NCBI GenBank assembly: GCA_963843575.1
Contig: CAWJKZ010000021.1
Span: 158,962-222,961, forward strand
DNA from: an uncultured Acidobacteriota bacterium
GTDB lineage: Bacteria; Acidobacteriota; UBA6911
DNA length: 64,000 nucleotides
Reading direction: 5' to 3'
Positions 42,455-55,501 of this stretch are shown here, piece after piece. Each line of letters starts with the position of its first letter. Position 1 is the first letter of the stretch. The translations under genes and the position numbers were made by a program. The notes beneath the pieces are model-generated. The model ran no database searches. It worked only from the letters and a program-made list of their open reading frames with translations, and was not told where the DNA came from.

Positions 42455-45049
42455 GTGAGGCTCACTTTTCGGAAGAAGGATCCTGAACCCGTTCACGCGC
42501 ACCCCGAGCCTCCTTCGCGCCGCTTCTTCCGCTTCCGCGTCCCCGGCGGGCGCGAGATCCGCCTCTCCGGCACCGCGCTGGCCGCGTTTTTGATCGCGCT
42601 GCTGGCCGTGTTGTCCGTGTTGGGTGCGGGCACGTACCTCTACGTCCGCTTCGACAGGCTCATCGACGAGCTCCTTGCGGGCAACATCTACCAGAACACG
42701 TCGCGCGTCTTTGCCGCTCCCGGGAGAATTGCCGCGGGCGAGGTGCTCACGGCGGCTGAACTGGTTCACTATCTCCAGGGTGCCGGGTACGCAGACTCGC
42801 GGGATGGCGGCCCGCTCGGGCGCTACGCGTATGTCGGGGGTGCGCTGGAGATTCGACCGGGGAGCGGCTCGTGGTTCGCGGGGAAGAACGGCATCCGGGT
42901 CGAGTTCGCCGGCCGCCGTATCTCGCGCATCTCCAGCCTCGTTAATGGCGCCCGGCTCAACGCCGCCGAAATCGAGCCCGAGATGATCACGAGCCTTTTC
43001 GACGTGGCGCGCGAGAAGCGGCGACTCGTCCGGTTCGAAGATCTCCCGGCGGCGCTGGTCGACGCGGTCCTGTCGACGGAAGACCGCCGCTTCTTCAATC
43101 ACCCCGGCCTGGACTTCTTCCGGGTGCTCGGGGCCGCCTGGGTGGATCTGCGCCGCGGCGAGAAAGCGCAGGGCGCCAGCACGATCACGATGCAGGTCGC
43201 GCGCAGCTTCTTTTTCACTTCGCGCCGGGAATGGGGCCGCAAGCTGCGCGAGACCGTCATGGCCCTGCTGCTGGAGCAACGCTTCAACAAGAAGCAGATC
43301 TTCGAGCTGTACGCCAACCAGATCTACCTGGGGAACCGCGCCAGCTTCGCAATCCGCGGTTTCGGCGAGGCGGCGATGGCCTATTTCGGAAAGGACGTCC
43401 AGCGGCTGGATTTGGCAGAATGCGCCTTCCTGGCCGGTATCATCAGGGCGCCCAACCGATACTCGTCGGCCGAACGCAGGCCGGAACGGGCCGCCGAGGC
43501 TCGCGACCGGGTGCTCGCCCGGATGGAGGAGAACGGCAAGCTGCGGCCCGGAGACGCCAAGGTGGCTCGCAGGGCTCCGCTGCGCATTGTCACGAGCGCC
43601 ACGGTCGGCAACTCGGCCGGGTATTTCGTGGATTTGGTGAAAGACGACCTCCTGGACCGCTATTCGGAGAACGAACTCATCTCCGAAAGCTACCGGATCT
43701 ACACGACCTTCGACTACGACCTTCAGCGCGTGGCGGCGCAAGCCGTGGAGTGGGGGATGAAAAACGTCGATGCGCAGCTCGCGCGCAAGTACGACGCGTG
43801 GCGCCGGCAAGGGGCGGACGTTCCCGCGGCTCAGGTGGCGCTGGTCGTGATCGACCCGTCGACCGGGGAAGTCCGAGCCCTGGTCGGGGGCCGCGACTAC
43901 GCCCGCAGCCAGCTCGACCGCGCCCTCGCGAAACGTCAGCCGGGCTCCGTGTTCAAGCCGTTTGTCTATGCTGCGGCCTTCGAGAGCGCCATCGACGGCC
44001 TTACCCCGCTGTTCACGCCGGCGAGCACCGTGGTAGACGAGCCGACGACCTTCGACTTCAAAGGGACCCCGTATGCGCCCGACAACTTCGGGGAGGAGTT
44101 CCGCGGGACGGTCAGCCTCCGCGACGCGCTGACGTATTCCCTCAACGTCGCCACGGTCAAGGTTGCGGAGGCGGTCGGGTACAGGCGCGTGGTCGGTGTG
44201 GCGAGGCGGCTCGGGCTTCCCCCGGACCTGCAGCCCACCCCCGCCGTAGCGCTCGGCGCCTATGAGATGACGCCGCTCGAGGTCGCGGCGGGCTACACCG
44301 TGTTCGCCAACGAGGGGACGCGCTGCGAACCGGTCTTCATCCGCACGGTGCTCGGACGGGACGGCGTCGCGCTCGAACAGGAGGGGTTGCACCGCAAGGC
44401 GGTGCTCGACGGCCGGGTGGCCTACCTGGTCACCAGCATCCTGGAGGACGTTGTCGACCGGGGCACGGGGGCCGGGGTCCGGGCCCGGGGCTTCCGGGCT
44501 CCAGCCGCCGGCAAAACCGGGACGTCTCGCGATGGCTGGTTTGCCGGGTACACCTCCAACCTCCTGTGCGTCGTCTGGGTCGGTTTCGACGACAACCGGG
44601 AGCTCGGTCTTACCGGGTCGGTTTCCGCTGCGCCCATCTGGGCCGAGTTCATGCGCCGCGCGACGGCGCTCCCGCGCTACCGCAACACCCAGCCATTCAC
44701 CCGGCCGGACGGCGTCGTGTTCGAAACCATCGACCCTGAGTCGCAGGAACTCGCGACCGCGGCCTGCCCCTCCGTCCGCCAGGAAGTTTTCATCGCCGGC
44801 ACCGAGCCGACCGAAACGTGCCCGCTGCACCCGGAGGAGTCGCCGGAAAACATCCCCCCGATCTCGTGGTTGTCTAAAATCCTGGGGCGCGGCCACGAGG
44901 ATGCTGCGCGGGAGCAGGCCGCGCAACCCGAGAAGCCCAAGGCCGAAAAAAGAAAGAGAGGATTCTTCAAGCGACTCTTCGGCATCGGCAACGACCGCGA
45001 GGAGGGCCCTCCCGCAGAAAAGGGCGGGGCGCAAGCGGGGCCCGGATGA
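42455..45049 (+). CDS. Class A penicillin-binding protein (PBP1B-like, UB2H-type insert)
   Basis: EDRRFF, GASTITMQ, RKLRE, LYANQIY, RDRVL; SVFK, SLN, KTG. Confidence 0.92.
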   Translation: MRLTFRKKDPEPVHAHPEPPSRRFFRFRVPGGREIRLSGTALAAFLIALLAVLSVLGAGTYLYVRFDRLIDELLAGNIYQNTSRVFAAPGRIAAGEVLTAAELVHYLQGAGYADSRDGGPLGRYAYVGGALEIRPGSGSWFAGKNGIRVEFAGRRISRISSLVNGARLNAAEIEPEMITSLFDVAREKRRLVRFEDLPAALVDAVLSTEDRRFFNHPGLDFFRVLGAAWVDLRRGEKAQGASTITMQVARSFFFTSRREWGRKLRETVMALLLEQRFNKKQIFELYANQIYLGNRASFAIRGFGEAAMAYFGKDVQRLDLAECAFLAGIIRAPNRYSSAERRPERAAEARDRVLARMEENGKLRPGDAKVARRAPLRIVTSATVGNSAGYFVDLVKDDLLDRYSENELISESYRIYTTFDYDLQRVAAQAVEWGMKNVDAQLARKYDAWRRQGADVPAAQVALVVIDPSTGEVRALVGGRDYARSQLDRALAKRQPGSVFKPFVYAAAFESAIDGLTPLFTPASTVVDEPTTFDFKGTPYAPDNFGEEFRGTVSLRDALTYSLNVATVKVAEAVGYRRVVGVARRLGLPPDLQPTPAVALGAYEMTPLEVAAGYTVFANEGTRCEPVFIRTVLGRDGVALEQEGLHRKAVLDGRVAYLVTSILEDVVDRGTGAGVRARGFRAPAAGKTGTSRDGWFAGYTSNLLCVVWVGFDDNRELGLTGSVSAAPIWAEFMRRATALPRYRNTQPFTRPDGVVFETIDPESQELATAACPSVRQEVFIAGTEPTETCPLHPEESPENIPPISWLSKILGRGHEDAAREQAAQPEKPKAEKRKRGFFKRLFGIGNDREEGPPAEKGGAQAGPG

Positions 45050-45084
45050 ACTCAAATCCACACGTGTCGCGTGGTGGACCCGTT

Positions 45085-45167
45085 TGGAGTGCGACGCCTC
45101 GGCGGCCTCGGCGCCGCTTTCCTCATGGTTCCACGGCCGGAATGCCCGGCGCCTCGGCGCCGCACCC
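45085..45167. repeat. GGAGTGC-family REP-like element, downstream of mutS2
   Basis: TGGAGTGCGACGCCTCGGCGGCCTCGGCGCCGCTTT...CCCGGCGCCTCGGCGCCGCACCC. Confidence 0.75.
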
Positions 45168-45184
45168 CAGACTGTGGGTGGCTG

Positions 45185-47569
45185 CTACTTGCGCATTTCG
45201 ACCACCGTGGCGCCGCCGCCCCCTTTTTCGGGTGCGGCAAGGGCGAAACGCTCGACCTGGGGATGGCCTTTGAGCAGCTGCGCGATCGCTCGGCGCAGGA
45301 TCCCCTTGCCATGGCCGTGGATGATGCGGACAGTGTCCGCCCCGGCGACAAACGCCTCGTCGAGAAACTTGTCGACCCGGTCGGTCGCCTCGTCGGCCGT
45401 CATGCCGATGACGTTGGCCTCGCGCTCAAACTCCTCGTCGATGTTGACGTCGGGCCCCGAGGCGTGAAATCCGGGGCGCGGCGCTGCGGTGCCGGCCGCC
45501 GGTTGAAGCGGGACGATTTCTTCCGGCCTGAGGCGGAATTTCAACGAACCCACCAGTACGGTGCAGGTGTCGTCCTGCGTCGAATCGACCACCCCTTCCT
45601 TGCCGAGCGACGGAATCCGCACCCGGGTCCCCTCGCGGAGGTCCGCGACGTGAAAGGTGGGCGCCGCGGGCACGCCCGCGCCGGTGTCGGCGCCGGGCCC
45701 CTGTTTCAGCCGCTCTGCGGTGCGGCGCAGTTCGGCTGAGCGGCTGGCTGCGGCCTTGCTGAGGCGCTGGGCTTCGACCCGGTCCTTCAGGTCGCGGACG
45801 AGACGCTCGCTTTGCGCGGTGAAGCCGGCGATCACGCGGGCGAGTTCCTGCTCGAATTCGCGGTGCCTTTCGGCCTCGCGGCGGGCGAACTCCAGATCGA
45901 GCCGGGCGTATTCCCGCGCCGCCGCCTCACGCTCCTGCTCCAGGGCGGCGCGCAACTGTTCCTGGTCGTCGACGGAGGCCTTCAGCTTCCTGAGGTAGGC
46001 GCCGGCCTCGGTGTGCGCGGGATCGATACGGGCCTTGGCCTCGTCGAGGATGACCGGCGGGATGTTCATGCGGCGGGCGATCTCGAGCCCTGCCGATGCG
46101 CCGGCCACCCCGACCATCAGCCTGTAGGTCGGCCGCAGCGTGCGCTCGTCGAACTCCACCGACGCGTTCAGCACGCCCTCGGCCTGCGCCGCCCAGATTT
46201 TGAGACCCGAGTAGTGGGTGGTGGCGACCGTGGTGGCCCCGGCACGGCGGAAGAAATCGACGATGGCCACGGCCAGCGCCGCCCCCTCGTCCGGGTCGGT
46301 CCCGGTCCCGACCTCGTCCAGCAGCAGCAGCGCCGGCGGGGCGACGCGCTCGGCCATGTCGGCGATGTTGCGCATGTGCGCCGTGAAGGTCGACAGGTTG
46401 GCCGCGATCGACTGCTGGTCGCCGATGTCGGCAAACACCTGGTCGAAAACCGGGAGCACCGCCTCGCAGGCGGGCACGTGCAGACCCATTTGCGCCATCA
46501 GGACGGCAAGCCCCACCGTCTTGAGCACCACGGTCTTTCCCCCGGCATTCGGCCCGCTGATGACGACGACCTGGTGTGACTCGTCGAGGTCCAGCGTGAT
46601 GGGGACCGCGGTCGCCCCGGAGACCCGCAGGGCGCGCTCGAGCAGAACATGGCGGACATCGGCGAGGCGCAGCGCCGTGCCTTGGGCCAGCCGCGGCCGC
46701 ACGCAGCGGAACTCGGCGGAAAGTCTCCCTTTTGCCTGGGAGAAGTCCACCAGCGCGACGGCGTCCCGGACAGCGGCAATCTCGGCGGCGTGCAGCCGGA
46801 GGGCCTCGCTGATGGAGAAGAGAATGCGGGCAATCTCCGCCTCCTCCTGCTCGCGCAGCCGCACGAGCTCGTTGTTCTGCTCGATGGCCGCAAGGGGTTC
46901 GACGAAAGTCGTCTGCCCGCTGGAAGACAGGCCGTGCACCACACCCGGGACCTGGTGGCGCGCGTCGGTGCGGATCGGGATGACGAAGCGGCCGTTACGA
47001 AACGTGACGAGATCGTCCTGGACTGCCCGCGTCTGCGCCTTGAGGATGGAGTCCAGGCTTCGAAAGATGCGCGTGCGGGCTTCCCCGAGCTCGCGCCGTA
47101 TCGCCCTGAGCTCGGGGCTCGCGTTCTCGTCGATCTCTCCCCCGGGAAGGATCTTTCCCCGGATCGAGCCGAGCAGCCGCCGCAGATCGGGGATGCTGCC
47201 GGAGAGACGGGACAGCTCGGGGTAGAGTTCGAGCGCCTCGGCGCCCCGGAACTGCTCGCGCAGGCCGAGCCCGACCGAGACCAGCCGCTCCAGCTGGAGT
47301 ATCTGCAGCGGTTCGAGGCTCGTGCCTTCGATCTGCAGCTTGGCCAGGGCCGCTTCCGGGTCCTCGATGCCGGCGAACCCGAATCGTTCGCCGGAGTTCA
47401 GGTAGCGCGCGCACTCGGTGGTGAGCTCCTGCCCCAGCTCGATTTCAGCCCGATCGGACGACGGCCGCTGCGCCGCGACGAGCCGGCGGCCGAGCGGCGT
47501 CTGGGCGTGCCCGGCCAGCAAATCGAGGAGAGAGTGCAGCTCGAGCGTGGAAAAGGTGCGTTGGTCCAT
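45185..47569 (-). CDS. mutS2: Endonuclease MutS2
   Basis: GPNAGGKTVVLK, DIGDQQSI, LSTF, LDEVGTGTDP.EG, TTHY, Smr domain IIHGHGKG.LR. Confidence 0.95.
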   Translation of the reverse strand: MDQRTFSTLELHSLLDLLAGHAQTPLGRRLVAAQRPSSDRAEIELGQELTTECARYLNSGERFGFAGIEDPEAALAKLQIEGTSLEPLQILQLERLVSVGLGLREQFRGAEALELYPELSRLSGSIPDLRRLLGSIRGKILPGGEIDENASPELRAIRRELGEARTRIFRSLDSILKAQTRAVQDDLVTFRNGRFVIPIRTDARHQVPGVVHGLSSSGQTTFVEPLAAIEQNNELVRLREQEEAEIARILFSISEALRLHAAEIAAVRDAVALVDFSQAKGRLSAEFRCVRPRLAQGTALRLADVRHVLLERALRVSGATAVPITLDLDESHQVVVISGPNAGGKTVVLKTVGLAVLMAQMGLHVPACEAVLPVFDQVFADIGDQQSIAANLSTFTAHMRNIADMAERVAPPALLLLDEVGTGTDPDEGAALAVAIVDFFRRAGATTVATTHYSGLKIWAAQAEGVLNASVEFDERTLRPTYRLMVGVAGASAGLEIARRMNIPPVILDEAKARIDPAHTEAGAYLRKLKASVDDQEQLRAALEQEREAAAREYARLDLEFARREAERHREFEQELARVIAGFTAQSERLVRDLKDRVEAQRLSKAAASRSAELRRTAERLKQGPGADTGAGVPAAPTFHVADLREGTRVRIPSLGKEGVVDSTQDDTCTVLVGSLKFRLRPEEIVPLQPAAGTAAPRPGFHASGPDVNIDEEFEREANVIGMTADEATDRVDKFLDEAFVAGADTVRIIHGHGKGILRRAIAQLLKGHPQVERFALAAPEKGGGGATVVEMRK

Positions 47570-47609
47570 GCGGAACCTTACTTAGAAACGGGGCGGGCGG
47601 TCAAGTGTG

Positions 47610-47692
47610 TGGAGTGCAGCGCCTCGGCGGCCTCGGCGCCGCTTTCTCGGTGCGTCCTACGGCCGAATTACCCGGCGCCTCGGCGCCACACC
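47610..47692. repeat. GGAGTGC-family REP-like element, upstream of mutS2
   Basis: TGGAGTGCAGCGCCTCGGCGGCCTCGGCGCCGCTTT...CCCGGCGCCTCGGCGCCACACC; a further inverted unit at 47724-47748. Confidence 0.75.
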
Positions 47693-47813
47693 GAACCTCG
47701 CCGTGCCCTTACTGCTCGACGCGCGGCGCCGTCGAGCCGCCGCGCTCCTGGCCTGCCTTGCTCCTTGTGCAAGAAAGCGTTAGTCTGTGACAACAAAGTG
47801 TGGAGCCGCCGAT

Positions 47814-49187
47814 ATGCCTGCGAGCAGGAAAATCGTGATCATGGGGGCCGCGGGGAGGGATTTTCACAACTTCAACCTCTGTTTCCGCAATAACCCGGCG
47901 TACCGTGTCGAAGCATTCACCGCTTTTCAGATCCCGAACATCTCGGGCCGCACCTATCCGCCGGGACTCGCCGGCGAGGGGTATCCGGAGGGGATCCCGA
48001 TCTATCCCGAAGCCGATCTCCCGGGGCTGATCCGGGACAAGGGGATCCAGGAGGTGGTCTTCGCCTACAGCGACGTCTCGTACGCCGACCTCATGCACAA
48101 GGCGTCGCTGGTCAACGCCGCCGGCGCGGATTTCCGGCTCTTGGGCGCGGCGGGCACGATGCTCCGGGCGGGGAAGCCGGTGGTGGCGGTCTGCGCCGTC
48201 CGGACGGGATGCGGGAAGAGCCAGACGTCGCGGCGCGTTGCGGAGCTGCTGCGTGGACGCGGCAAATCGGTGGTGGTCGTGCGCCACCCCATGCCGTACG
48301 GCGACCTGAACGCGCAACGCTGCCAGCGTTACGAGGCGCTCGCGGACCTGGACCGGCACCGCTGCACGATCGAGGAGCGCGAAGAATACGAGTCCCACAT
48401 CCTGCAGGGAAACATCCTCTACGCGGGGGTGGACTACGAGGAAATCCTGCGCAGCGCCGAAAAGGAGGCCGACATCATTCTCTGGGACGGCGGCAACAAC
48501 GACCTGCCGTTCTTCCGCCCGGACCTGCACATCGTGCTGGTGGACCCGCACCGACCCGGTCACGAGCTGCGCTACTACCCGGGGGAGACCAACCTGCGGA
48601 TGGCGGATGTGGTGATCGTGAGCAAGTCGGGGAGCGCGACGGCGGCGGGTGTGGAGGAGGTGACCGCGAACGCTAGAGGCGCGAACCCGCGGGCCCTGTT
48701 GATCCGCGCCGACTCGATCCTGCACGTCCAGGACGAGACGGCTATTCGCGGCAGGCGAGTGCTGGTGGTCGAGGACGGCCCGACCCTGACGCACGGCGAG
48801 ATGACTTACGGCGCGGCGCACCTGGCGGCGCGGCAGTTCGGAGCGGCCGAGATCGTTGACCCGCGGCCCTACGCGGTGCGCTCGATGCGTGAGACCTTCG
48901 CTCGGTATCCCCACCTGGTCGACGTGCTCCCGGCCATGGGATATGGCGACGAGCAGGTCCGGGACCTCCAGGAGTCCATCGACGCCGTCCCGTGCGACCT
49001 CGTGCTGGTCGGCACCCCGCTCGACCTGGGGCGGCTGATCGAGACCCGACATCCGATGCTGCGCGTGACCTACAGCCTCGACGCGGTTGCGTCGGAAGCG
49101 CTGGACCGGGTGCTGGGACAGTTCCTATCCAGTCCGTTGGAGACAAGAGGCGACCATGCGGAAAAAGGACTTTCTCTCCATCCGTGA
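47814..49187 (+). CDS. P-loop ATP-dependent ligase of the cPGS-like/COG2403 family; probable arginine synthetase (ArcE)
   Basis: IMGAAGRDFHNFN, AFQIPNI.GR.YP..LAG..YP.GIPI, AVRTGCGKS, RHPMPYG, TIEEREEYE, WDGGNND, EDGPT.THG, PAMGY; first gene of an OTC/carbamate kinase operon. Confidence 0.8.
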   Translation: MPASRKIVIMGAAGRDFHNFNLCFRNNPAYRVEAFTAFQIPNISGRTYPPGLAGEGYPEGIPIYPEADLPGLIRDKGIQEVVFAYSDVSYADLMHKASLVNAAGADFRLLGAAGTMLRAGKPVVAVCAVRTGCGKSQTSRRVAELLRGRGKSVVVVRHPMPYGDLNAQRCQRYEALADLDRHRCTIEEREEYESHILQGNILYAGVDYEEILRSAEKEADIILWDGGNNDLPFFRPDLHIVLVDPHRPGHELRYYPGETNLRMADVVIVSKSGSATAAGVEEVTANARGANPRALLIRADSILHVQDETAIRGRRVLVVEDGPTLTHGEMTYGAAHLAARQFGAAEIVDPRPYAVRSMRETFARYPHLVDVLPAMGYGDEQVRDLQESIDAVPCDLVLVGTPLDLGRLIETRHPMLRVTYSLDAVASEALDRVLGQFLSSPLETRGDHAEKGLSLHP

Positions 49188-50073
49188 TCAGTCCACGGAC
49201 GAGCTGCGCGACACGCTCATCAACGCCTTTGCGGTCAAATCGGATCCGCTGAAGTACTCGGATGCGCTCAGGGGGAAGGCTCTGGCCATGATTTTCGAGA
49301 AGCCTTCCCTGCGGACTCGGGTGACCTTCGATGTCGGCATACACCAGTTGGGCGGCTTTTCCGTCTACCTCTCGCCCGGCGAGATCAACCTGGGCAAGCG
49401 CGAACCGGTGGGCGACGTGGCCCGCAACCTCGAGCGCATGGTGCAGGGGATCATGATCCGCACGTTCAGCCACCGGATCGTGGAGGAAATGGCGGCGTGC
49501 GCGTCGGTCCCTGTGATCAACGGCCTCACCGACTTCAGCCACCCCTGCCAGGCGGTGGCCGACTACATGACCATGATCGAGTGCAAGGGGGAACTGAGCG
49601 GCCTGAAGCTGGCCTATCTCGGGGACGGCAACAACGTGGCCAACTCGCTGATGTTCGGCGCTGCCCTGCTGGGTGTGCACATCGTCGTCGCCGCCCCGCG
49701 CGGCTACGAGCCGAGGACAGAGGTGCTCGAGTGGGCGCGCGCGCACGCACCGGCCTCGGGGAGCAGGATCGAGGTCACGGACGATCCCGAACAAGCCGCC
49801 GCCGGCGCCGACGTGCTCTACACGGACGTCTGGGCGAGCATGGGCCAGGAGGACGAGGCGGCGGAGCGGCGGCGGAGCTTTCAGCCATACCAGGTCTCCG
49901 AGCGCCTGTTCGAGCTGGCCAGGCCCGACGCGATCTTCATGCACTGCCTCCCCGCTCATCGGGACGAAGAAGTCAGCGCGGGGGTGATCGACTCGCCCCG
50001 ATCCGTCGTCTTCCAGCAGGCGGAAAACCGGCTCCACGCGCAGAAGGCGATCATGCTGGGCGTCATGGGTTGA
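49156..50073 (+). CDS. argF: Ornithine carbamoyltransferase
   Basis: FEKPSLRTR, IRT, NGLTDFSHPCQ, GDGNNV, DVWASMGQE, MHCLP, QAENRLH. Confidence 0.93.
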   Translation: MRKKDFLSIRDQSTDELRDTLINAFAVKSDPLKYSDALRGKALAMIFEKPSLRTRVTFDVGIHQLGGFSVYLSPGEINLGKREPVGDVARNLERMVQGIMIRTFSHRIVEEMAACASVPVINGLTDFSHPCQAVADYMTMIECKGELSGLKLAYLGDGNNVANSLMFGAALLGVHIVVAAPRGYEPRTEVLEWARAHAPASGSRIEVTDDPEQAAAGADVLYTDVWASMGQEDEAAERRRSFQPYQVSERLFELARPDAIFMHCLPAHRDEEVSAGVIDSPRSVVFQQAENRLHAQKAIMLGVMG

Positions 50074-50082
50074 GGTGAATCC

Positions 50083-51045
50083 GTGGCTAGATCCGCGCTG
50101 GTCGCAGTAGGCGGAAATTCGCTCGTCCGTGCGGGAGAGCAGGGGGCGGTCCGTGAGCAGGTTGCCAACGCGCGCCGCATCAGCCGTGCGATCGCCGCGC
50201 TCCTGCGGGAAGGGCTCGACGTGGTCGTCACGCACGGCAACGGGCCGCAGGTGGGGGCCGCACTGCTCCGCTCGGAAAGAGCCTCCGGCCAGGTGTACGA
50301 ACAGGGCCTCGACGTGTGCGTCGCCGCCACCCAGGGCGAGATAGGCTACATCCTTCAGCAGGCGCTCGGGTACGAAATCCGCCGCCAGGGGATCGACAGG
50401 CCGGTGACCACCATCCTGACCCAGGTCGTGGTGGGCGTGGACGACCCCGCCTTCCTGCACCCCACGAAACCCGTCGGGCCCTTTTACTCGCGCACCGCGG
50501 CCGAGGAAAAGGCGCGCCGGCTGGGGTGGATCATGGTCGAGGACGCCGCCCGGGGCTACCGGCGCGTGGTCCCCTCGCCGCGCCCCCTGGAGATCGTCGA
50601 AGAGGACGTGATCCGCAGGATGCTCTCAATGGGGATGCTGGTGATCGCGCTGGGCGGGGGAGGTATCCCGGTGGTGCGCGAAGAGGGCGCGCTCCGCGGG
50701 GTCGACGCCGTGATCGACAAGGACCGTGCCTCCCTGCTGCTCGGCTCGCGCCTGCCGGTCGATCTCCTCGTCTTCGCCACCGACGCCGACCGCGTCTACC
50801 TCGACTACCGGAAGCCCGGCCAGCGGCCGCTGACCCGCGTGTTTGCGCGGCAGATGCGCGCCTACCTGGCCGCCGGCCAGTTCCCGCCCGGGAACATGGG
50901 GCCCAAGATCGAAGCGGCGCTCGAATTCCTGGCGCTCGGGGGGAAGGAAGCCATCGTCGCCTCCCACGAGCACCTCGTGGCCGCCGTCCACGGCGAGGCC
51001 GGCACCCGGATCCTGCCCGACAACTCCGAGGAGCGCAATCCATGA
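50083..51045 (+). CDS. arcC: Carbamate kinase
   Basis: VAVGGNSL, THGNGPQVG, ATQGEIGY, DPAF..PTKPVGPFY, RRVVPSP, GGGGIPV, VIDKD, MGPKIEAA. Confidence 0.95.
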   Translation: MARSALVAVGGNSLVRAGEQGAVREQVANARRISRAIAALLREGLDVVVTHGNGPQVGAALLRSERASGQVYEQGLDVCVAATQGEIGYILQQALGYEIRRQGIDRPVTTILTQVVVGVDDPAFLHPTKPVGPFYSRTAAEEKARRLGWIMVEDAARGYRRVVPSPRPLEIVEEDVIRRMLSMGMLVIALGGGGIPVVREEGALRGVDAVIDKDRASLLLGSRLPVDLLVFATDADRVYLDYRKPGQRPLTRVFARQMRAYLAAGQFPPGNMGPKIEAALEFLALGGKEAIVASHEHLVAAVHGEAGTRILPDNSEERNP

Positions 51046-51956
51046 AGCTCCGTCACGTCATTCAGTCTCAACAGTTCACCGTACCCCTCCTGATGGAGCT
51101 CTTCGACCGCACCCGCGCCATGGAGCGCGTCGTGCGCCGGGGCGGGACGCAGGATTACCAGAACAAAATCATGGCGACCCTGTTCTACCAACCCTCGACG
51201 CGCACGCGCTTCTCGTTCGAAGCCGCGATGTACCGCCTGGGGGGAAAAGTGTTTTCCACCGAGCAGGCCCGCTACTTCTCCTCGGAGGTCGAGGGAGAGC
51301 AGCTGGAAGACACGATCCGCACGATCTCCGGCTACTCCGATGTCATCGTGATCCGCCACTCTGAGGTGGGGGGAGCGGCGCGCGCGGCGGCTGTGTCACG
51401 GGTGCCGGTGATCAACGCCGGCGACGCCAACGGCGGGCAGCACCCCACGCAGGCCCTGCTGGACCTTTACACGATATTCCGCGAACGCCGCACGCTCGAC
51501 GGACTCAGCATCGCCATCATCGGGGACCTCGAACGCGGCCGCACCGCCCGCTCCCTGGCCTACCTGTTGAGCAAATTCGACCGAGTGAAGATCTGGTTCG
51601 TAAGCCCGCCCGAGCTTCAGATGGCGCGCGACATCCTGGACTACCTCGAGGAAAACGACGTGTGGTACGGGCTCGAACCCGACATGGACCGCGTGCTCGG
51701 GCACGTCGACGTCGTCTACCTGACCCAGATCCGCCCGGCCCGCCTCAAGGAGCAGCAGGGGGCGCTCAAGTACACGATCGATGCCTCGGTACTTCGTTGT
51801 CTGCGGCCCGACGCCCTGATCCTGCACCCCCTCCCGCGGACCGCGGAACTGGACAAGGCTGTCGACGAAGACCCCCGCGCGTGCTACTTCCGGCAGGCGG
51901 CCAACGGCCTGTTCGTGCGGATGGCGCTGCTGACAATGGTGCTCGAGGACGCCTGA
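51042..51956 (+). CDS. Aspartate carbamoyltransferase-like transcarbamylase with altered amino-acid-binding residues
   Basis: [40 protein letters not shown]...RMALL; SSEVEGE and TQIRPAR where ATCases have SS..KGE and TRIQ.ER. Confidence 0.85.
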
Positions 51957-52011
51957 GGCTTCCGGCCAACGGCCCCCTCCCAGCGCACCCGGTGTTGGAG
52001 AGGAGAATGCC

Positions 52012-53232
52012 ATGGAAGAGGAACTCAAGGCTGCAAAGCCTGCGACCACTGCGGACGCCCTCATCGACCTCGAAAACGAGTACGGCGCACATAATTACAA
52101 CCCGCTGGACGTCGTCGTGCACCGGGCGTCGGGTGTCTGGGTGTACGACGTCGAGGGGAAGCGTTACCTCGACTGCCTGGCCGCCTATTCCGCCGTGAAC
52201 CAGGGACACTGCCATCCGGCCATCCTGCACGCGGCCGAGGAGCAGATGCGCCTCGTGACCCTGACCTCGCGCGCCTTCCGCAACGACCAGCTTCCGCTGC
52301 TGTGCCGGGACCTGCACGAACTCACCGGCATGGAGATGGCGTTGCCCATGAACTCCGGGGCGGAGGCGGTCGAAACGGCGCTGAAGGCGGCGCGCAAGTG
52401 GGGCTATACGTGCAAAGGGATCCCTCCGGGGAAGGCGGAGATCGTCGTCTGCGCCAACAACTTTCACGGCCGCACGATTTCGCTCGTGAGTTTTTCCACC
52501 GACGAACAGTACCGGCGCGGCTTCGAACCGTTCACCCCCGGTTTCAGGACGGTGCCGTACGGAGACAGCGACGCACTCCGCCGCGCACTGACTCCCAACA
52601 CCTGTGCCTTCCTGGTGGAGCCCATCCAGGGGGAGGCGGGAGTCGTCATCCCGCCGGACGGTTACCTCGAGGCGTGCTCCAGGCTGTGCAGGGAAAACGA
52701 CGTGCTGTTCGTGGCCGACGAGATCCAATCGGGGCTGGGGCGCGCCGGAAAGCTCTTCGCCTATTTGTACGAGGACGTCGAGCCCGACGTCCTGATCATA
52801 GGGAAAGCGCTCGCCGGCGGGTTCTACCCCGTCTCGGCCGTGCTGGCCTCCAAGGAGGTGCTCGGCGTCTTCGGGCCCGGCGACCACGGCAGCACGTTCG
52901 GCGGCAACCCCCTCGCCTGCGCCATCGCCCGGGCCGCGCTCCGCGTACTGCAGGAGGAGAAGCTCGTCGAGCGCTCCGCCGAACACGGCCGGTACTTCCT
53001 CGGGCTCCTGCGGACGCTGCGCTCCGCCGACATCGTCGAGGTAAGGGGCCGCGGCCTCTGGATCGGCCTCGAGCTCAAGCGTGGAGCACGCGGCTGCTGC
53101 GAGATCCTGAAGGAGCGGGGGATCCTCTGCAAGGAAACCCACGAACGCGTGATCCGGGTCGCGCCCCCCCTCGTGATCACGCGTGAGGAGATCGACTGGG
53201 CCTTCGAAAGGTTCCGCTCCGTCCTCGAATAG
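52012..53232 (+). CDS. rocD: Ornithine--oxo-acid transaminase
   Basis: [76 protein letters not shown]. Confidence 0.95.
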
Positions 53233-53252
53233 CCCCGCGGACCTCACCATTT

Positions 53253-53274
53253 GGAGTGCGGCGGCTCGACGCCG
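53253..53274. repeat. GGAGTGC-family REP-like unit
   Basis: GGAGTGCGGCGGCTCGACGCCG just after rocD. Confidence 0.6.
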
Positions 53275-53310
53275 ACACTAGCCCATGTCTGCGGGCTTTC
53301 GCGCTATTCG

Positions 53311-53437
53311 CGTGCGTATGTGTTCGTGGCGTCGCTCGCGTTTCTGCTGGATCGAGCGTTGGAGAAAAAACTGCAATCGGCCGGCTCGGACATCTCATCG
53401 CGGGAGGGAGGCTTGGCAGTCGCTGCGGACAGTCCGG
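53311..53437 (+). mobile_element. Remnant of IS1634-family transposase C-terminus
   Basis: RAYVFVASLAFLLDRALEKKLQSAGSDISS then, after a frameshift, EAWQSLRTVR; resembles the IS1634 AHVFVAALAFLL.RALEKKL motif from memory; no start or DDE core. Confidence 0.6.
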
Positions 53438-53466
53438 ACACAGGCTACGCCTGTCACCAGGTCCAG

Positions 53467-53500
53467 ATCCGCGCGCAACCGCGAAAATCCGCGTCCGGGA
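53467..53500. repeat. ATCCGCG-family element, copy 3 (right arm)
   Basis: ATCCGCG 53467, AACCGCG 53477, ATCCGCG 53487 then TCCGGGAACGTC. Confidence 0.7.
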
Positions 53501-53593
53501 ACGTCTGTCAGCGCACTTCCGAACACCTGACCTGTACCAGGCCAACCTGCACTGGGCCGCTTACGCTCCACGTCCAGCGGTGGACCGACGAGC

Positions 53594-53602
53594 TGATATA
53601 AT
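53594..53602 (+). promoter_or_regulatory. Extended -10 promoter of qor
   Basis: TG-A-TATAAT, 28 nt upstream of the start codon. Confidence 0.65.
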
Positions 53603-53629
53603 GTTCCCGGTTATCTCGATGGGAGCCAC

Positions 53630-54601
53630 ATGATGAAAGCGATACGCGTGCATGAAACGGGCGGTCCCGAGGCACTCCAACTCGAAGAGATTGCCGTGCC
53701 GGCACCGGGCCCCGGCCAGGTACGGGTGCAAGTCAAGGCGATCGGTGTGAACTTCATCGACATCTACCACCGCAGCGGGCTCTACAAGCTCCAGCTTCCG
53801 TTCATCCCGGGTTCCGAGGCGGCCGGGATCGTTGATGCCGTCGGCGAAGGCGTCAAGACAGTGGCGGCGGGGGAGCGGGTGGCCTACGCCATGAATCCGG
53901 GCGCCTACGCCGAGTACGCGCTCGTCAACGACTGGCAGCTCGTGAAGCTCCCGGACGACGTCGATTTCCGCACGGCGGCCGCGCTGATGCTGCAAGGCAT
54001 GACCTCGCACTACCTCATGTACTCCACGTTTCCACTCCGCAGCGGGGAAGTCGCCCTGGTTCACGCCGCGGCCGGCGGGGTGGGGCTGCTGCTGCTGCAG
54101 ATCGGCAAGATGCTCGGAGCCACCCTGATCGGCACGGTTTCGACGCAGGGGAAACGGGAGCTGGCCCTGGAGGCGGGGGCCGACCACGTCGTCCTGTACG
54201 AAGAGAACGACTTCGAGGCGGAAGTGAAGAAGCTGACCGACGGCCACGGTGTCCACGTCGTGTACGATTCGGTCGGGCGGACCACGTTCGACCGCAGCCT
54301 GCGTTGTCTGCGGCCGCGCGGCATGCTGGTCCTTTTCGGACAATCCAGCGGGCCCGTGCCCCCCATCGATCCCGGCGTGCTGGCGGCGCGCGGCTCGGTC
54401 TACCTGACCCGGCCGAGCCTGGCCCATTACACGGCCAGCCCGGAGGAGATCGGCTGGCGCGCCGGCGACGTGCTGCGGTGGGTCGCCGAAGGACGGCTCA
54501 AGGTGCGCATCGACTCCAACTATCCGCTGGGCGAGGCGGCGGCGGCTCACCGCGCCCTCGCGGGCCGGAAGACCAGCGGCAAGATTATCCTCCAGCCCTG
54601 A
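53630..54601 (+). CDS. qor: NADPH:quinone oxidoreductase (zeta-crystallin/MDR)
   Basis: GVNFIDIYHRSGLY, HAAAGGVG, YDSVG, FGQSSG, GSVYLTRPSL, RKTSGK. Confidence 0.92.
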   Translation: MMKAIRVHETGGPEALQLEEIAVPAPGPGQVRVQVKAIGVNFIDIYHRSGLYKLQLPFIPGSEAAGIVDAVGEGVKTVAAGERVAYAMNPGAYAEYALVNDWQLVKLPDDVDFRTAAALMLQGMTSHYLMYSTFPLRSGEVALVHAAAGGVGLLLLQIGKMLGATLIGTVSTQGKRELALEAGADHVVLYEENDFEAEVKKLTDGHGVHVVYDSVGRTTFDRSLRCLRPRGMLVLFGQSSGPVPPIDPGVLAARGSVYLTRPSLAHYTASPEEIGWRAGDVLRWVAEGRLKVRIDSNYPLGEAAAAHRALAGRKTSGKIILQP

Positions 54602-54637
54602 GTCAGCCGCCTTACTACTGATGTTCACAGATGCGCT

Positions 54638-54727
54638 TTTTTCAGGACCCAAACTTGCGCGGATCCACACGGATCGGCCTAGCGAGCGTGAATCCGTTGA
54701 ATCCGCGCAAATCTGCGTCCTGAAAAA
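54638..54727. repeat. ATCCGCG-family element, copy 4, complete with 11-bp terminal inverted repeats (MITE-like)
   Basis: TTTTTCAGGAC 54638-54648 and GTCCTGAAAAA 54717-54727 enclose CGCGGAT/CACGGAT units facing ATCCG/ATCTG units at 10-nt period. Confidence 0.75.
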
Positions 54728-54754
54728 TACGTCAGCGTAATTATGAGACTGTAC

Positions 54755-55501
54755 TCAGTGCAGCCTGAAGATCACGGTCACGATCGCGAGCACCGGGACC
54801 GGCTCGCCGTTGAGCAGCGTAGGAGAATATTTCCACTGGCGTACTGCCTCGACCGCCGCGTCGCTCAGCAGCGGGTGGCCGCCCACTACCCGGACGGCCA
54901 CGACGTTTCCGTCGTCGTCCACCGCGACTTCGAGTGTCACTTCACCTGAAACCCGCGCCCTGCGGGCCAGTTCGGGGTATGCCGGCTCGACCCTGCGGAG
55001 CAGGCGGGACTCGAGCACTTTCCCGCCGATGCGCATCGCCTCCGTCGTCCGGTGCACCGGGGGTGGAGGCGGCGGCCGCAGCGGAGCAGCCGGCCGGCCG
55101 CCGGGCAGCAGCTCCGCCGGAATGCCCGGGAATCCGCCCGGGCCGAACGGTTGCCCCGGCACGCCGAATTCCGCCGCGGGCAGTTCCTCCGGCGGGAGTG
55201 GATCGAGGACGATGCCGTCCGGTATGATCGTCGGGGTTAAGAGCCCCAGCCTGATGGTGGCTGCGCCACCGCGGACCTGAGCCGTCCCAACCGGAGGGCG
55301 AGGCGGCTCGCGCGCGGGCGGCGTGGCTGGGGTGGCAATAAGGAACGTGAGCAGGCCTGCGCCCGGGATGACGTTCAGCCAGAACAGCGGCACCAGCACC
55401 AGCGCGCCGATCCCGACGATGTGAAGCACCAGCGAGACAAGAAGACTCGAGGCGCGGCGCAAGAAGCTGCGCTGTTCGCCGAACTCGGCCGATTCGAACA
55501 T
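54755..55501 (-). CDS. Energy transducer TonB-family protein
   Basis: TM SLVLHIVG, Pro-rich spacer, RVEPAYPELARRARVSG.V.L, AVEAVRQWKY.P.LLNG. Confidence 0.88.
   Translation of the reverse strand: MFESAEFGEQRSFLRRASSLLVSLVLHIVGIGALVLVPLFWLNVIPGAGLLTFLIATPATPPAREPPRPPVGTAQVRGGAATIRLGLLTPTIIPDGIVLDPLPPEELPAAEFGVPGQPFGPGGFPGIPAELLPGGRPAAPLRPPPPPPVHRTTEAMRIGGKVLESRLLRRVEPAYPELARRARVSGEVTLEVAVDDDGNVVAVRVVGGHPLLSDAAVEAVRQWKYSPTLLNGEPVPVLAIVTVIFRLH

Follow-up and report, generated by a model that had tools for sequence, protein, structure and literature searches.

An ATCase-like protein encoded beside carbamate kinase in a putative ArcE-type arginine operon has lost canonical aspartate contacts and probably does an undescribed job

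Introduction

What does a protein related to aspartate transcarbamylase (ATCase) do when it is encoded directly after carbamate kinase (CK) in an arginine operon? Transcarbamylases are well known for having their choice of substrate set by a handful of loop residues, and new members of the family are mislabelled in databases. The one non-aspartate enzyme described so far from the ATCase branch is ureidoglycine transcarbamylase (UGTCase) of Rubrobacter xylanophilus, and catabolic members of that branch with a link to CK have been anticipated but not proven (Shi et al. 2015, PMC4581275). Here we analyze one gene in a 64,000-nucleotide stretch of DNA from an uncultured Acidobacteriota bacterium (the window) and call its product ATCL, for ATCase-like transcarbamylase-fold protein. 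A sequence-only reading of the window had proposed that ATCL has a rewired substrate pocket and acts on an amino acid other than aspartate, perhaps in reverse to feed CK. A literature search found no paper on the clade to which ATCL belongs.

Results

An ATCase-like gene in an arginine operon

The ATCL gene lies downstream of genes for an ArcE-like P-loop protein, ornithine carbamoyltransferase (OTC) and CK, and upstream of a gene for ornithine--oxo-acid aminotransferase (OAT) (Table 1). The start codon of ATCL falls within the CK stop region (ccATGAag) to give a 4-nt overlap, and no pyr gene was found within about 7 kb on either flank, both in agreement with the sequence-only reading. The OTC gene of the operon is the sole OTC-type gene found in the genome. 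An alternative GTG start for the P-loop gene is present at 47787. An Rfam scan of positions 44500-55000 returned no family, and a promoter and terminator scan of 47000-54000 returned nothing that exceeded the shuffled background.

Table 1. Genes of the operon and active-site motifs of ATCL, in window coordinates
Feature	Coordinates	Strand	Remarks
ArcE-like P-loop protein (arginine synthetase family)	47814..49187	+	457 aa counted from ATG
Ornithine carbamoyltransferase (OTC, argF/arcB)	49156..50073	+	NF001986 422.9 bits (cut-off 306); TIGR00658 396.9
Carbamate kinase (CK, arcC)	50083..51045	+	NF009007 331.8 bits (cut-off 266); TIGR00746 351.5
ATCL (name coined here)	51042..51956	+	304 aa, stop-free translation
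STRTR (S52-R56), CP phosphate-binding motif	51195..51209	+	S52, R54, T55 invariant in 197/197
80s/CP-loop F79-S-S-E82-V-E84-G-E86	51276..51299	+	F79, S80, S81 invariant in clade
HPTQ (H134-Q137)	51441..51452	+	one-residue clade-specific insertion ahead (DANGGQ)
D162-L-E164-R-G-R167-T	51525..51545	+	R167 invariant in 197/197; acidic residue fixed at 164
240s-loop entry T228-Q229-I-R231-P-A-R234	51723..51743	+	canonical T-R-x-Q-x-E-R
HPLPR (H262-R266 here; E. coli P266-L267-P268)	51825..51839	+	invariant in 197/197
Ornithine--oxo-acid aminotransferase (OAT, rocD type)	52012..53232	+	TIGR01885 519 bits (cut-off 378)

The P-loop protein gave no Pfam or NCBIfam match above threshold, but it carries a Walker A motif (RTGCGKS). 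Its orthologues give weak CobW/CbiA P-loop matches, and the names given to its homologues are "predicted GTPase" or "cyclic 2,3-diphosphoglycerate synthase"; no literature match was found for COG2403. Homologues of TK2200/ArcE have been reported near arcB and arcC and are present in Acidobacteria (Michimori et al. 2024, PMC11032458). In names, size, context and taxa, the P-loop protein fits what has been published on ArcE homologues, which makes it a putative member of that family by description. The ArcE (arginine synthetase) type of operon, indicated by this upstream gene, had been missed in the sequence-only reading. No arginine deiminase gene (arcA) scored above the cut-off in 13 carrier genomes.

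The gene order is conserved. CK is directly upstream of ATCL in 77 of 80 genome loci, with the 4-nt overlap in 11 of the 77, such that the coupling to CK that was proposed from the window alone is seen here and the CK link holds across the clade. The dominant arrangement is OTC-CK-ATCL-OAT-ArcE and permutations of it, found in Acidobacteriota, Gemmatimonadota, Bacteroidota/Ignavibacteriota and some Pseudomonadota. Among the 80 loci, none was seen to come from a cultured organism. When all flanking open reading frames of the 80 loci were clustered, no sixth conserved neighbour such as a transporter or hydrolase emerged. The next commonest flanking families were antisense shadow reading frames or lineage-specific neighbours, for example DNA polymerase I. 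At one locus where ATCL stands apart from CK, the neighbours (RsmB, a WD40 protein and a glycosyltransferase) were uninformative. An apparent CK-ATCL fusion (P0021) was rejected as evidence of physical coupling: its CK part is missing the last ~95 residues and is joined exactly at Met1 of ATCL, and the fusion is thus a deletion or an assembly artefact. Of 201 genomes sampled from the phylum, 126 have ArcE and only 3 have ATCL, and ArcE-CK-OTC operons exist that have no ATCL. ATCL is therefore dispensable for the pathway.

A separate pyrB and a plant-type origin

ATCL belongs to the ATCase branch by family models and fold. It scored 284.1 bits against TIGR00670, which exceeds the cut-off of 236.95, and 256.5 bits against NF002032, which is under the cut-off of 263. 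Both transcarbamylase domains were detected (OTCace_N, PF02729, 140.9 bits; OTCace, PF00185, 86.5 bits). An AF2 model was predicted with confidence (pLDDT 90.3, pTM 0.91), and Foldseek matched the model to Arabidopsis ATC (6yw9/6ys6) with a TM score of 0.93. HMMER aligned ATCL to Arabidopsis PYRB (6ypo) without gaps (E 5e-93, ~52% identity). Other branches of the superfamily were rejected. ATCL has no SMG loop, which in OTC is part of DxxxSMG, and carries HPLP and R167 instead of the HCLP and Asn at position 167 of OTC/PTC proteins, and OTC models gave at most 149 bits, far under their cut-offs. UGTCase membership was likewise rejected, as HPLP is invariant and Lys84 is absent in the clade, versus H(T/S)LP with a Lys84 equivalent in UGTCase. 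The motifs FxExSTR and RxQxER have been taken to define ATCase (Shi et al. 2015, PMC4581275), and ATCL matches neither, having FYQPSTR and TQIRPAR.

ATCL is not the only ATCase homologue in its genome. A canonical pyrB, with SKGET and RVQHER, was found on another contig in a pyrR-pyrB-pyrC/pyrK-pyrD-pyrF cluster; it scored 318.5 bits on TIGR00670 versus 284.1 for ATCL. The genome also contains carB and argG. Moreover, a separate ATCase was found besides ATCL in 12 of 12 other carrier genomes tested. The sequence-only reading had named ATCL being the sole pyrB as evidence that would count against it, and the second copies in this genome and in the other carriers remove that objection. We conclude that ATCL is not the PyrB of the cell's pyrimidine pathway.

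ATCL did not arise by recent duplication of the native pyrB, as the native PyrB is of the HPGP type, a remote class on a long branch, and ATCL falls among plant-type ATCases. The ATCL clade is monophyletic (SH-aLRT 100), with a stem of 0.45 and very short internal branches, and is nested among plant-type ATCases that have K84 and RxQ. At 50% identity, clustering left roughly one full-length sequence to represent the clade among the 150 nearest. The gene is under purifying selection, with a dN/dS of 0.03-0.10; in each informative pair, the other four operon genes gave higher values. Its reading frame is intact in 80 of 80 loci. We conclude from the tree that ATCL is a distinct clade derived from plant-type (ATC II) ATCases. 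The paralogy, the conservation pattern, the synteny and the purifying selection of ATCL are direct observations.

The carbamoyl phosphate site is kept and aspartate contacts are lost

To compare active sites, 197 unique sequences of the clade, from several phyla and all from metagenome-assembled genomes, were set against 95 canonical relatives. Residues are numbered by the E. coli PyrB sequence, with the register cross-checked against PDB alignments. Aligned to 6ypo, ATCL has STRTR at 52-56, R105 (within IRH), HPTQ at 134-137, G-R167-T and, in its own numbering, HPLPR at 262-266, and the earlier claims of an intact carbamoyl phosphate (CP) site and a retained Arg167 equivalent were thus borne out. 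Conservation is 100% across the 197 sequences at S52, R54, T55, R105, H134, R167, P266-L267-P268, R269 and R296, and Q137 is present in 196; R234 is also retained. At least 98% invariance was seen in 34% of columns. There are 40 sites that are at least 95% invariant in the canonical relatives; the clade keeps 33 of them, and the real losses among the 40 are K84, D162, R229 and Q231.

The substitutions in the two substrate loops were confirmed. FSSEVEGEQ of ATCL aligns with FSSAAKGET of 6ypo, which places Glu at Lys84, and TQIRPAR aligns with TRIQRER, which exchanges Arg229 for Gln and Gln231 for Arg. Chance was ruled out, as 95 of 95 canonical relatives carry K84 and Q231, both of which are lost in >95% of the clade. 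Position 84 in the 197 clade sequences is E in 135, A in 21, Q in 19, D in 10 and K in 5. Q231 is retained in 8 of 197. R229 is retained in 57%, with Gln there in 41%. The swap covaries: Q229 is paired with R231 in 77 of 81 sequences, and Arg occupies 229 or 231 in 191 of 197 (97%). The E84/Q229/R231 combination, by which homologues were to be collected, is therefore real in ATCL but marks only a sub-lineage, since position 84 is variable and R229 is kept by more than half of the clade.

The remaining changes bear on whether the pocket has been rewired. Positions 84 and 231 are among the clade's more variable sites (79-81st entropy percentile), and positions 84, 231, 233 and 50 vary between orthologues that share one operon context. 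Constraint is relaxed at E50, D162 and E233, which serve domain closure and positioning: position 162 is D in 99% of canonical relatives, and the clade has E there in 165 sequences, A in 21 and D in 10. In ATCL itself FYQP precedes STRTR, a Glu50-to-Gln change that the sequence-only reading did not mention. Newly fixed in the clade are F79, E82 (191 of 197), an acidic residue at 164 (D in 191 and E in 4 of 197) and the insertion before QHPTQ, which is found in ~97% of the clade and missing from 98% of canonical relatives. A pocket rewired to E84/Q229/R231 is thus not supported in that form, as positions 84 and 231 are variable, unlike newly fixed specificity residues, and the fixed novelties are E82, D164 and the insertion. 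Glu82 and Asp/Glu164 are at or beside known pocket-forming positions. We conclude from the alignments that the clade has lost Lys84, Gln231 and Asp162, residues that canonical ATCases need to bind and position aspartate.

Discussion

ATCL probably does an undescribed job, as it is a second copy that keeps the CP site, its clade has lost aspartate contacts, and it adjoins CK in an arginine operon. The reading that we favor, at a probability of roughly 40%, is that ATCL may be a CP-dependent transcarbamylase with a partner other than aspartate. ATCL would then be an accessory to the particular OTC-CK pair of an ArcE-type operon, in which ArcE would convert arginine to citrulline, OTC would convert citrulline and Pi to ornithine and CP, and CK would use CP and ADP to make ATP. 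Having kept Arg167, the complete CP site and an arginine at the 240s-loop mouth, ATCL would still transfer carbamoyl between CP and some non-aspartate amino compound. It might free CP from an N-carbamoyl compound for use by CK, or it might divert arginine-derived CP into a stable carbamoyl product; we infer CP binding, catalysis, the second substrate and the direction of reaction. Another amino acid as substrate, or a reverse reaction that feeds CK, is plausible as first proposed, and a noncatalytic sensor fits about equally. Against an enzyme with a new substrate, variation at 84, 231, 233 and 50 within one operon context is unusual for the lining of a newly specialized pocket, there is no sixth conserved gene to suggest a ureido compound as second substrate, and most genomes that carry ArcE do without ATCL. 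Moreover, the conserved residues are the UMP-contact set of plant ATC, which a ligand-sensing pseudoenzyme would explain equally well.

One way in which ATCL could be retained without transferring carbamoyl is as a noncatalytic, CP- or nucleotide-binding partner of CK, a possible though tentative alternative in which a trimer of ATCL, with CK and/or OTC, would gate or channel CP, for example between ATP production and pyrimidine synthesis. ATCL would have kept the phosphate/CP site of its plant-type ancestor and perhaps also that ancestor's way of binding UMP. In a more specific and more doubtful form, ATCL, being derived from UMP-inhibited ATCases, would bind CP or a pyrimidine nucleotide and, with CK, decide whether arginine-derived CP is used for ATP or for biosynthesis. 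In Arabidopsis ATC, UMP is contacted by R54, T55, R105, H134, R167, R229, the PLP loop, S80, A82 and A83; F79 locks the loop; and K84 and Q231, which face outward in the UMP state, make contact with PALA/aspartate only (PMC7878868). In the ATCL clade the UMP-contact set is invariant, residues 79 to 83 are fixed, and exactly 84 and 231 are freed, together with the relaxed closure and positioning residues. Judged as a pseudoenzyme, the clade has lost K84 and D162 and kept R54, T55, R105, H134 and Q137 at a dN/dS of 0.03-0.10. That no gene of the operon is under tighter constraint than ATCL is consistent with additional protein-protein surfaces, and its place beside CK is in keeping with a partnership. 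Precedents for noncatalytic or channelling roles are the inactive DHOase PyrC' in Pseudomonas ATCase and CK-OTCase/ATCase channelling in Pyrococcus. There, a transcarbamylase-family or partner protein is kept beside CK for assembly, regulation or CP hand-over, as proposed for ATCL; unlike PyrC', ATCL keeps a whole ligand (CP) site. Arguing against a sensor, the whole catalytic constellation is intact, including Q137, a carbamoyl contact that is not listed for UMP. Furthermore, Glu82 may clash with UMP, since it stands where an Ala otherwise packs against the nucleotide, and R229, which contacts uracil O4, is Gln in 41% of members. With the apparent fusion rejected, physical partnership with CK remains putative.

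ATCL might instead be a residual, perhaps slow, ATCase dedicated to arginine-derived CP, which would make carbamoyl-aspartate or act catabolically on it. Consistent with this, ATCL exceeds the TIGR00670 equivalog cut-off, the clade keeps R167, R234, L267 and an Arg at 229 or 231, and a few members retain Q231 (8 of 197) or K84 (5 of 197). Nonetheless, we consider it unlikely, as K84 and Q231, invariant in canonical relatives, are lost in >95% of the clade, D162 is lost too, and acidic residues at 82 and 164 would disfavor a dicarboxylate. In E. coli ATCase, the K84Q and D162A mutations reduce activity more than 1,000-fold. Every carrier genome tested also has a canonical PyrB, and this genome has CarB. 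In favor of residual activity, the arginine synthetase pathway of Thermococcus kodakarensis supplies CP for pyrimidines (Michimori et al. 2026, PMC13260591), and a catabolic ATCase has been suggested before (Shi et al. 2015, PMC4581275). Finally, loss of the canonical aspartate-site residues and absence from most ArcE-bearing genomes would be expected of a duplicate that is decaying or has no function and hitchhikes with the operon. That is very improbable and already contradicted by the dN/dS values; more than a third of columns are nearly invariant over 197 sequences from several phyla, all 80 frames are intact and the fold is confidently predicted.

The nearest known systems each share part of the pattern. 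ATCL shares the fold, the CP-site residues, R167 and HPLP with plant-type ATC II (Arabidopsis PYRB, 6ypo, 6ys6), and like it has a trimer-type catalytic chain without PyrI. The F79-S-S start of the CP loop is also common to both and mediates UMP inhibition in plants (PMC7878868). Bacterial relatives of plant-type ATC II have the loop FSSAAKGET. ATCL differs from the plant type in that the clade has lost K84, Q231 and D162, has fixed E82, D164 and the insertion, and is relaxed at E50 and E233; its context is CK and an arginine operon rather than pyr genes, and a canonical PyrB co-exists in the genomes tested. UGTCase, like ATCL, is an ATCase-branch protein annotated as a (pseudo-)ATCase, and has been proposed to be catabolic with its CP feeding CK (PMC4581275). 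It has H(T/S)LP, keeps a Lys84 equivalent (K106) and carries S258/K261 in the 240s loop (PMC4581275), whereas ATCL has HPLP and no Lys84; the context of UGTCase is purine and that of ATCL is arginine. The ATCL operon shares a putative ArcE-family P-loop protein, OTC, CK and an associated OAT with the ArcE-ArcB-ArcC system of T. kodakarensis (PMC11032458, PMC13260591). As published, that pathway consists of three enzymes, and neither paper mentions an ATCase-like member in any arc cluster (PMC11032458, PMC13260591), whereas the ATCL operon has a fourth, ATCase-derived gene fixed between CK and OAT.

To the arginine synthetase pathway, itself discovered only in 2024, the ATCL clade brings a fourth gene as yet unexplained, and it is a concrete, testable candidate for the predicted catabolic ATCase-branch enzymes that feed CK. 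If ATCL is catalytic, its carbamoyl transfer would be a new reaction, linked in soil bacteria to a gain of ATP. If a sensor, it would show a possible reuse of the plant ATCase allosteric site as a regulator, and as a pseudo-ATCase it would be an enzyme turned regulatory subunit, fixed as the fourth component in one bacterial form of the arginine synthetase pathway. Either way, annotation and metabolic models are corrected for many metagenome-assembled genomes of Acidobacteriota, Gemmatimonadota and Bacteroidota. All public names found for members of the clade are "aspartate carbamoyltransferase".

An ATCase-like protein with altered substrate loops

The ATCase-like gene (ATCL; protein P0001) belongs to an operon of five tightly packed genes in one orientation, flanked 5′ by mutS2, which is encoded on the opposite strand, and by a PBP1A gene, and 3′ by a quinone oxidoreductase gene; the surroundings contain no pyr gene. 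Its ATG lies within ccATGAag, in which TGA is the stop codon of the upstream carbamate kinase (CK) gene, and the two genes therefore overlap by 4 nt. The top solved-structure match of P0001 was Arabidopsis PYRB (6ypo; E 5e-93), with both loops free of gaps in the HMMER alignment. Residue numbers follow the E. coli PyrB sequence, used for numbering only, in a register that matches the structure alignment. P0001 carries STRTR (52-56), R105, HPTQ (134-137), G-R167-T and HPLPR. K84 is replaced by Glu (FSSEVEGEQ versus FSSAAKGET in Arabidopsis PYRB), R229 by Gln and Q231 by Arg (TQIRPAR versus TRIQRER), and Glu50 by Gln (FYQPSTR). An AlphaFold2 model built from a 51-sequence alignment (pLDDT 90.3, pTM 0.91) had lower confidence solely at the 80s and 240s loops, and its top Foldseek matches were Arabidopsis ATC structures (TM 0.93). 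The sequence-only reading had described intact carbamoyl phosphate (CP) residues, a kept Arg167, both loop changes and no adjacent pyr gene; as alignment and open reading frames agree with it, each element of that observation is correct.

Genes of the operon in the window
Gene	Coordinates	Strand	Remarks
P-loop protein, 457 aa	47814-49187	+	without Pfam or NCBIfam family
Ornithine carbamoyltransferase (OTC)	49156-50073	+	NF001986, 423 bits
Carbamate kinase (CK)	50083-51045	+	directly 5′ of ATCL
ATCL (P0001), 304 aa	51042-51956	+	ORF translation
rocD-type ornithine aminotransferase (OAT)	52012-53232	+	TIGR01885, 519 bits

ATCL is not the cell's PyrB

The window's genome (6.68 Mb, 88% complete) contains three OTCace-family genes: ATCL, the operon OTC and an ATCase gene on contig C14 (C14:826719-827609). 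The last is the stronger ATCase match (318.5 bits versus 283.6 for ATCL), reads SKGET (K84) and RVQHER, and sits between pyrR and pyrC, opposite pyrK-pyrD-pyrF; carB (1510 bits) and argG were also found. Each of the 12 other ATCL-carrying genomes tested likewise had, at another locus, a further ATCase scoring above the TIGR00670 cut-off. The search for a second canonical pyrB that the sequence-only reading had proposed thus found one, within a pyr cluster, and with a separate ATCase in every carrier genome tested ATCL is therefore not a sole pyrB. We conclude that ATCL is not the cell's PyrB.

The pyrC reading frame adjoining the canonical pyrB on C14 (L004:7096-8673, minus strand) encodes about 280 dihydroorotase-like residues and then an Arg/Pro-rich nonsense tail. 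This looks like a frameshift, whether through an indel in the assembly or because the gene is a pseudogene. Besides the intact carB (C25:324065-327199), a second carB-like copy (C27:64828-67952, minus strand; L038) is broken into three successive parts (profile positions 1-57, 58-505 and 534-1049) and may reflect frameshifts or a naturally split or duplicated CPSase.

ATCL travels with an OTC-CK module

A Walker A motif is found in orthologues of the P-loop protein, which match CobW/CbiA only weakly, and public labels of its homologues include "predicted GTPase" and "cyclic 2,3-diphosphoglycerate synthase." Homologues of TK2200, the arginine synthetase ArcE of Thermococcus kodakarensis, are described in the same terms, with locations near arcB/arcC and an occurrence in Acidobacteria (Michimori et al. 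2024, PMC11032458). No arginine deiminase scored above cut-off in the window's genome or 12 other carrier genomes. By description, names and context, the P-loop protein is probably ArcE. Its motif VVIVSKSGSAT (window ~48650-48670) reads SKSG, SKVG or SKSD in the window and most close relatives, which fits an enzyme acting on adenine nucleotides better than a GTPase; at this position two orthologues (P0122 and P0123) have NK[VI]D, which resembles a guanine-specificity motif. The operon OTC is the sole OTC-type gene detected in the window's genome, as is its counterpart in another genome (G063, 99% complete); argC is present in both, and argG in the former. The same OTC probably serves arginine synthesis too, so the operon may run both ways.

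Synteny was counted at 80 genome loci, the best 80 of 122 relatives. CK lies directly upstream of ATCL at 77 of them, with a 4-nt overlap at 11 of the 77 and a median gap of 60 nt. Adjacency is therefore universal and translational coupling, which the sequence-only reading had claimed and which holds in the window, is lineage specific. The commonest order was OTC-CK-ATCL-OAT-ArcE (26 intact cases), followed by the window's ArcE-OTC-CK-ATCL-OAT; OAT was absent from about a dozen loci, ATCL stood alone at one (L107), and no sixth conserved neighbour was found across the 80. One Terriglobia metagenome-assembled genome (L085:1-5053) carries the module twice in tandem, first as OTC-CK-partial ATCL and next as OTC-CK-ATCL-OAT, through local duplication or as a repeat created in assembly.

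Among 201 sampled genomes of the phylum, 126 had ArcE homologues and 3 had ATCL, making the ATCL-bearing module a rare variant. Genomes lacking ATCL had ArcE-CK-OTC, CK-OAT-ArcE or ArcE alone, and their CK was just 41-49% identical to that of the window. Many ArcE homologues of the phylum are solitary or arranged as ArcE-CK-OTC with another type of CK. From the synteny and distribution, we conclude that ATCL is an accessory restricted to a single OTC-CK lineage, itself mobile as a module, and not a general pathway component.

An undescribed clade under strong selection

The 120 closest database proteins were 73-88% identical to ATCL, and all named ones are called aspartate carbamoyltransferase. 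Relatives numbered 122 in species-representative genomes; the best 80 (61-91% identity) all came from metagenome-assembled genomes of Acidobacteriota (Terriglobia, Vicinamibacterales, Korobacteraceae), Gemmatimonadota, Bacteroidota/Ignavibacteriota/Kapaibacteria and a few Pseudomonadota and Myxococcota, and the absence of cultured isolates will hamper genetics. The clade amounts to about one full-length representative among 1.8 billion 50%-identity representatives, and nearly every other one of the 150 nearest carries K84 and RxQ. A maximum-likelihood tree indicated that the clade is monophyletic (SH-aLRT 100, stem 0.45) and nests among plant-type ATCases, its internal branches being very short; the PyrB of the window's genome fell in a remote class. 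In the literature searched, no paper was found on the clade or on any ATCase-like member of arc/ArcE clusters, and both ArcE papers (PMC11032458, PMC13260591) leave such a member unmentioned. We conclude that ATCL is an undescribed, mis-annotated transcarbamylase-family clade with a defined genomic partnership.

Pairwise dN/dS of ATCL was 0.03-0.10, and the other four operon genes had higher values in all computable pairs. Across 197 unique clade sequences, 34% of columns were at least 98% invariant; S52, R54, T55, R105, H134, R167, T168, P266-L267-P268, R269 and R296 were 100% conserved, and Q137 was kept in 196. Among 95 canonical relatives, 40 sites were at least 95% invariant; the clade kept 33 of them, with mild changes at S58, G85 and G130 and losses at K84, D162, R229 and Q231. 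These four, with E50 and E233, fell in the 59th-87th entropy percentile of the clade, and most look released rather than re-fixed. E84/Q229/R231, the state named by the sequence-only reading, is that of a sub-lineage. An important exception to this release is that 191 of 197 sequences have Arg at either 229 or 231, R231 accompanying Q229 in 77 of 81, and the Q/R swap therefore retains one guanidinium where the loop begins. The features newly fixed in the clade were F79 (197/197), an acidic residue at 164 (195/197), E82 (191/197) and a one-residue insertion before QHPTQ (~97%).

States of four lost sites in the clade (n = 197)
Site	States
K84	E 135, A 21, Q 19, D 10, K 5
D162	E 165, A 21, D 10
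R229	R 112, Q 81
Q231	R 139, L 16, D 16, H 9, Q 8

Candidate functions of ATCL

ATCases are defined by FxExSTR and RxQxER, and the choice of second substrate lies with the 80s and 240s loops (Shi et al. 2015, PMC4581275). The only non-aspartate enzyme known in the ATCase branch, UGTCase, carries H(T/S)LP and retains the Lys (PMC4581275); ATCL has HPLP and lacks Lys84, which rules out that identity. In plant ATC, UMP occupies the active site via R54, T55, R105, H134, R167, R229 and the PLP loop (Bellin et al. 2021, PMC7878868). It also touches S80, A82 and A83 of the neighbouring chain, and F79 locks the loop. K84 and Q231 turn outward when UMP is bound, and their contacts are with the transition-state analogue alone (PMC7878868). 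By comparison, the ATCL clade keeps or fixes the UMP-contact set and frees K84 and Q231.

We tentatively favour, at a probability of about 0.4, a CP-dependent transcarbamylase that would use a partner other than aspartate, in one direction or the other, and be coupled to CK. The whole catalytic constellation including Q137, R167 with one loop Arg, the new fixed acidic residues and strong selection are consistent with such an enzyme, but pocket positions are variable and no second-substrate gene was found. Catabolic ATCase-branch enzymes feeding CK have been considered conceivable, if unproven (Shi et al. 2015, PMC4581275). The UMP-contact pattern, the relaxation of closure residues, a constraint stronger than in any other operon gene and the neighbouring CK could instead point to a non-catalytic CP- or nucleotide-sensing partner of CK/OTC. 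We rate that role as somewhat less likely, as the clade retains Q137 along with the rest of the catalytic set, a clash between E82 and UMP is possible and the partnership itself is putative. A residual or specialised ATCase has a precedent in T. kodakarensis, where arginine-derived CP is used for pyrimidines (PMC13260591), but is improbable given the loss of K84, Q231 and D162 and the canonical PyrB in each carrier genome tested. A functionless duplicate is contradicted by the selection data and hardly credible, and roles beyond these four take the remaining probability.

Two other ATCase-branch representatives (P0138 and P0142) also lack Lys84, with a loop opening FSSE, altered CP motifs (SMRT and SIRT) and altered 240s loops (TRLHKEL and TQLSKDH), and may be further unexplored deviant lineages.
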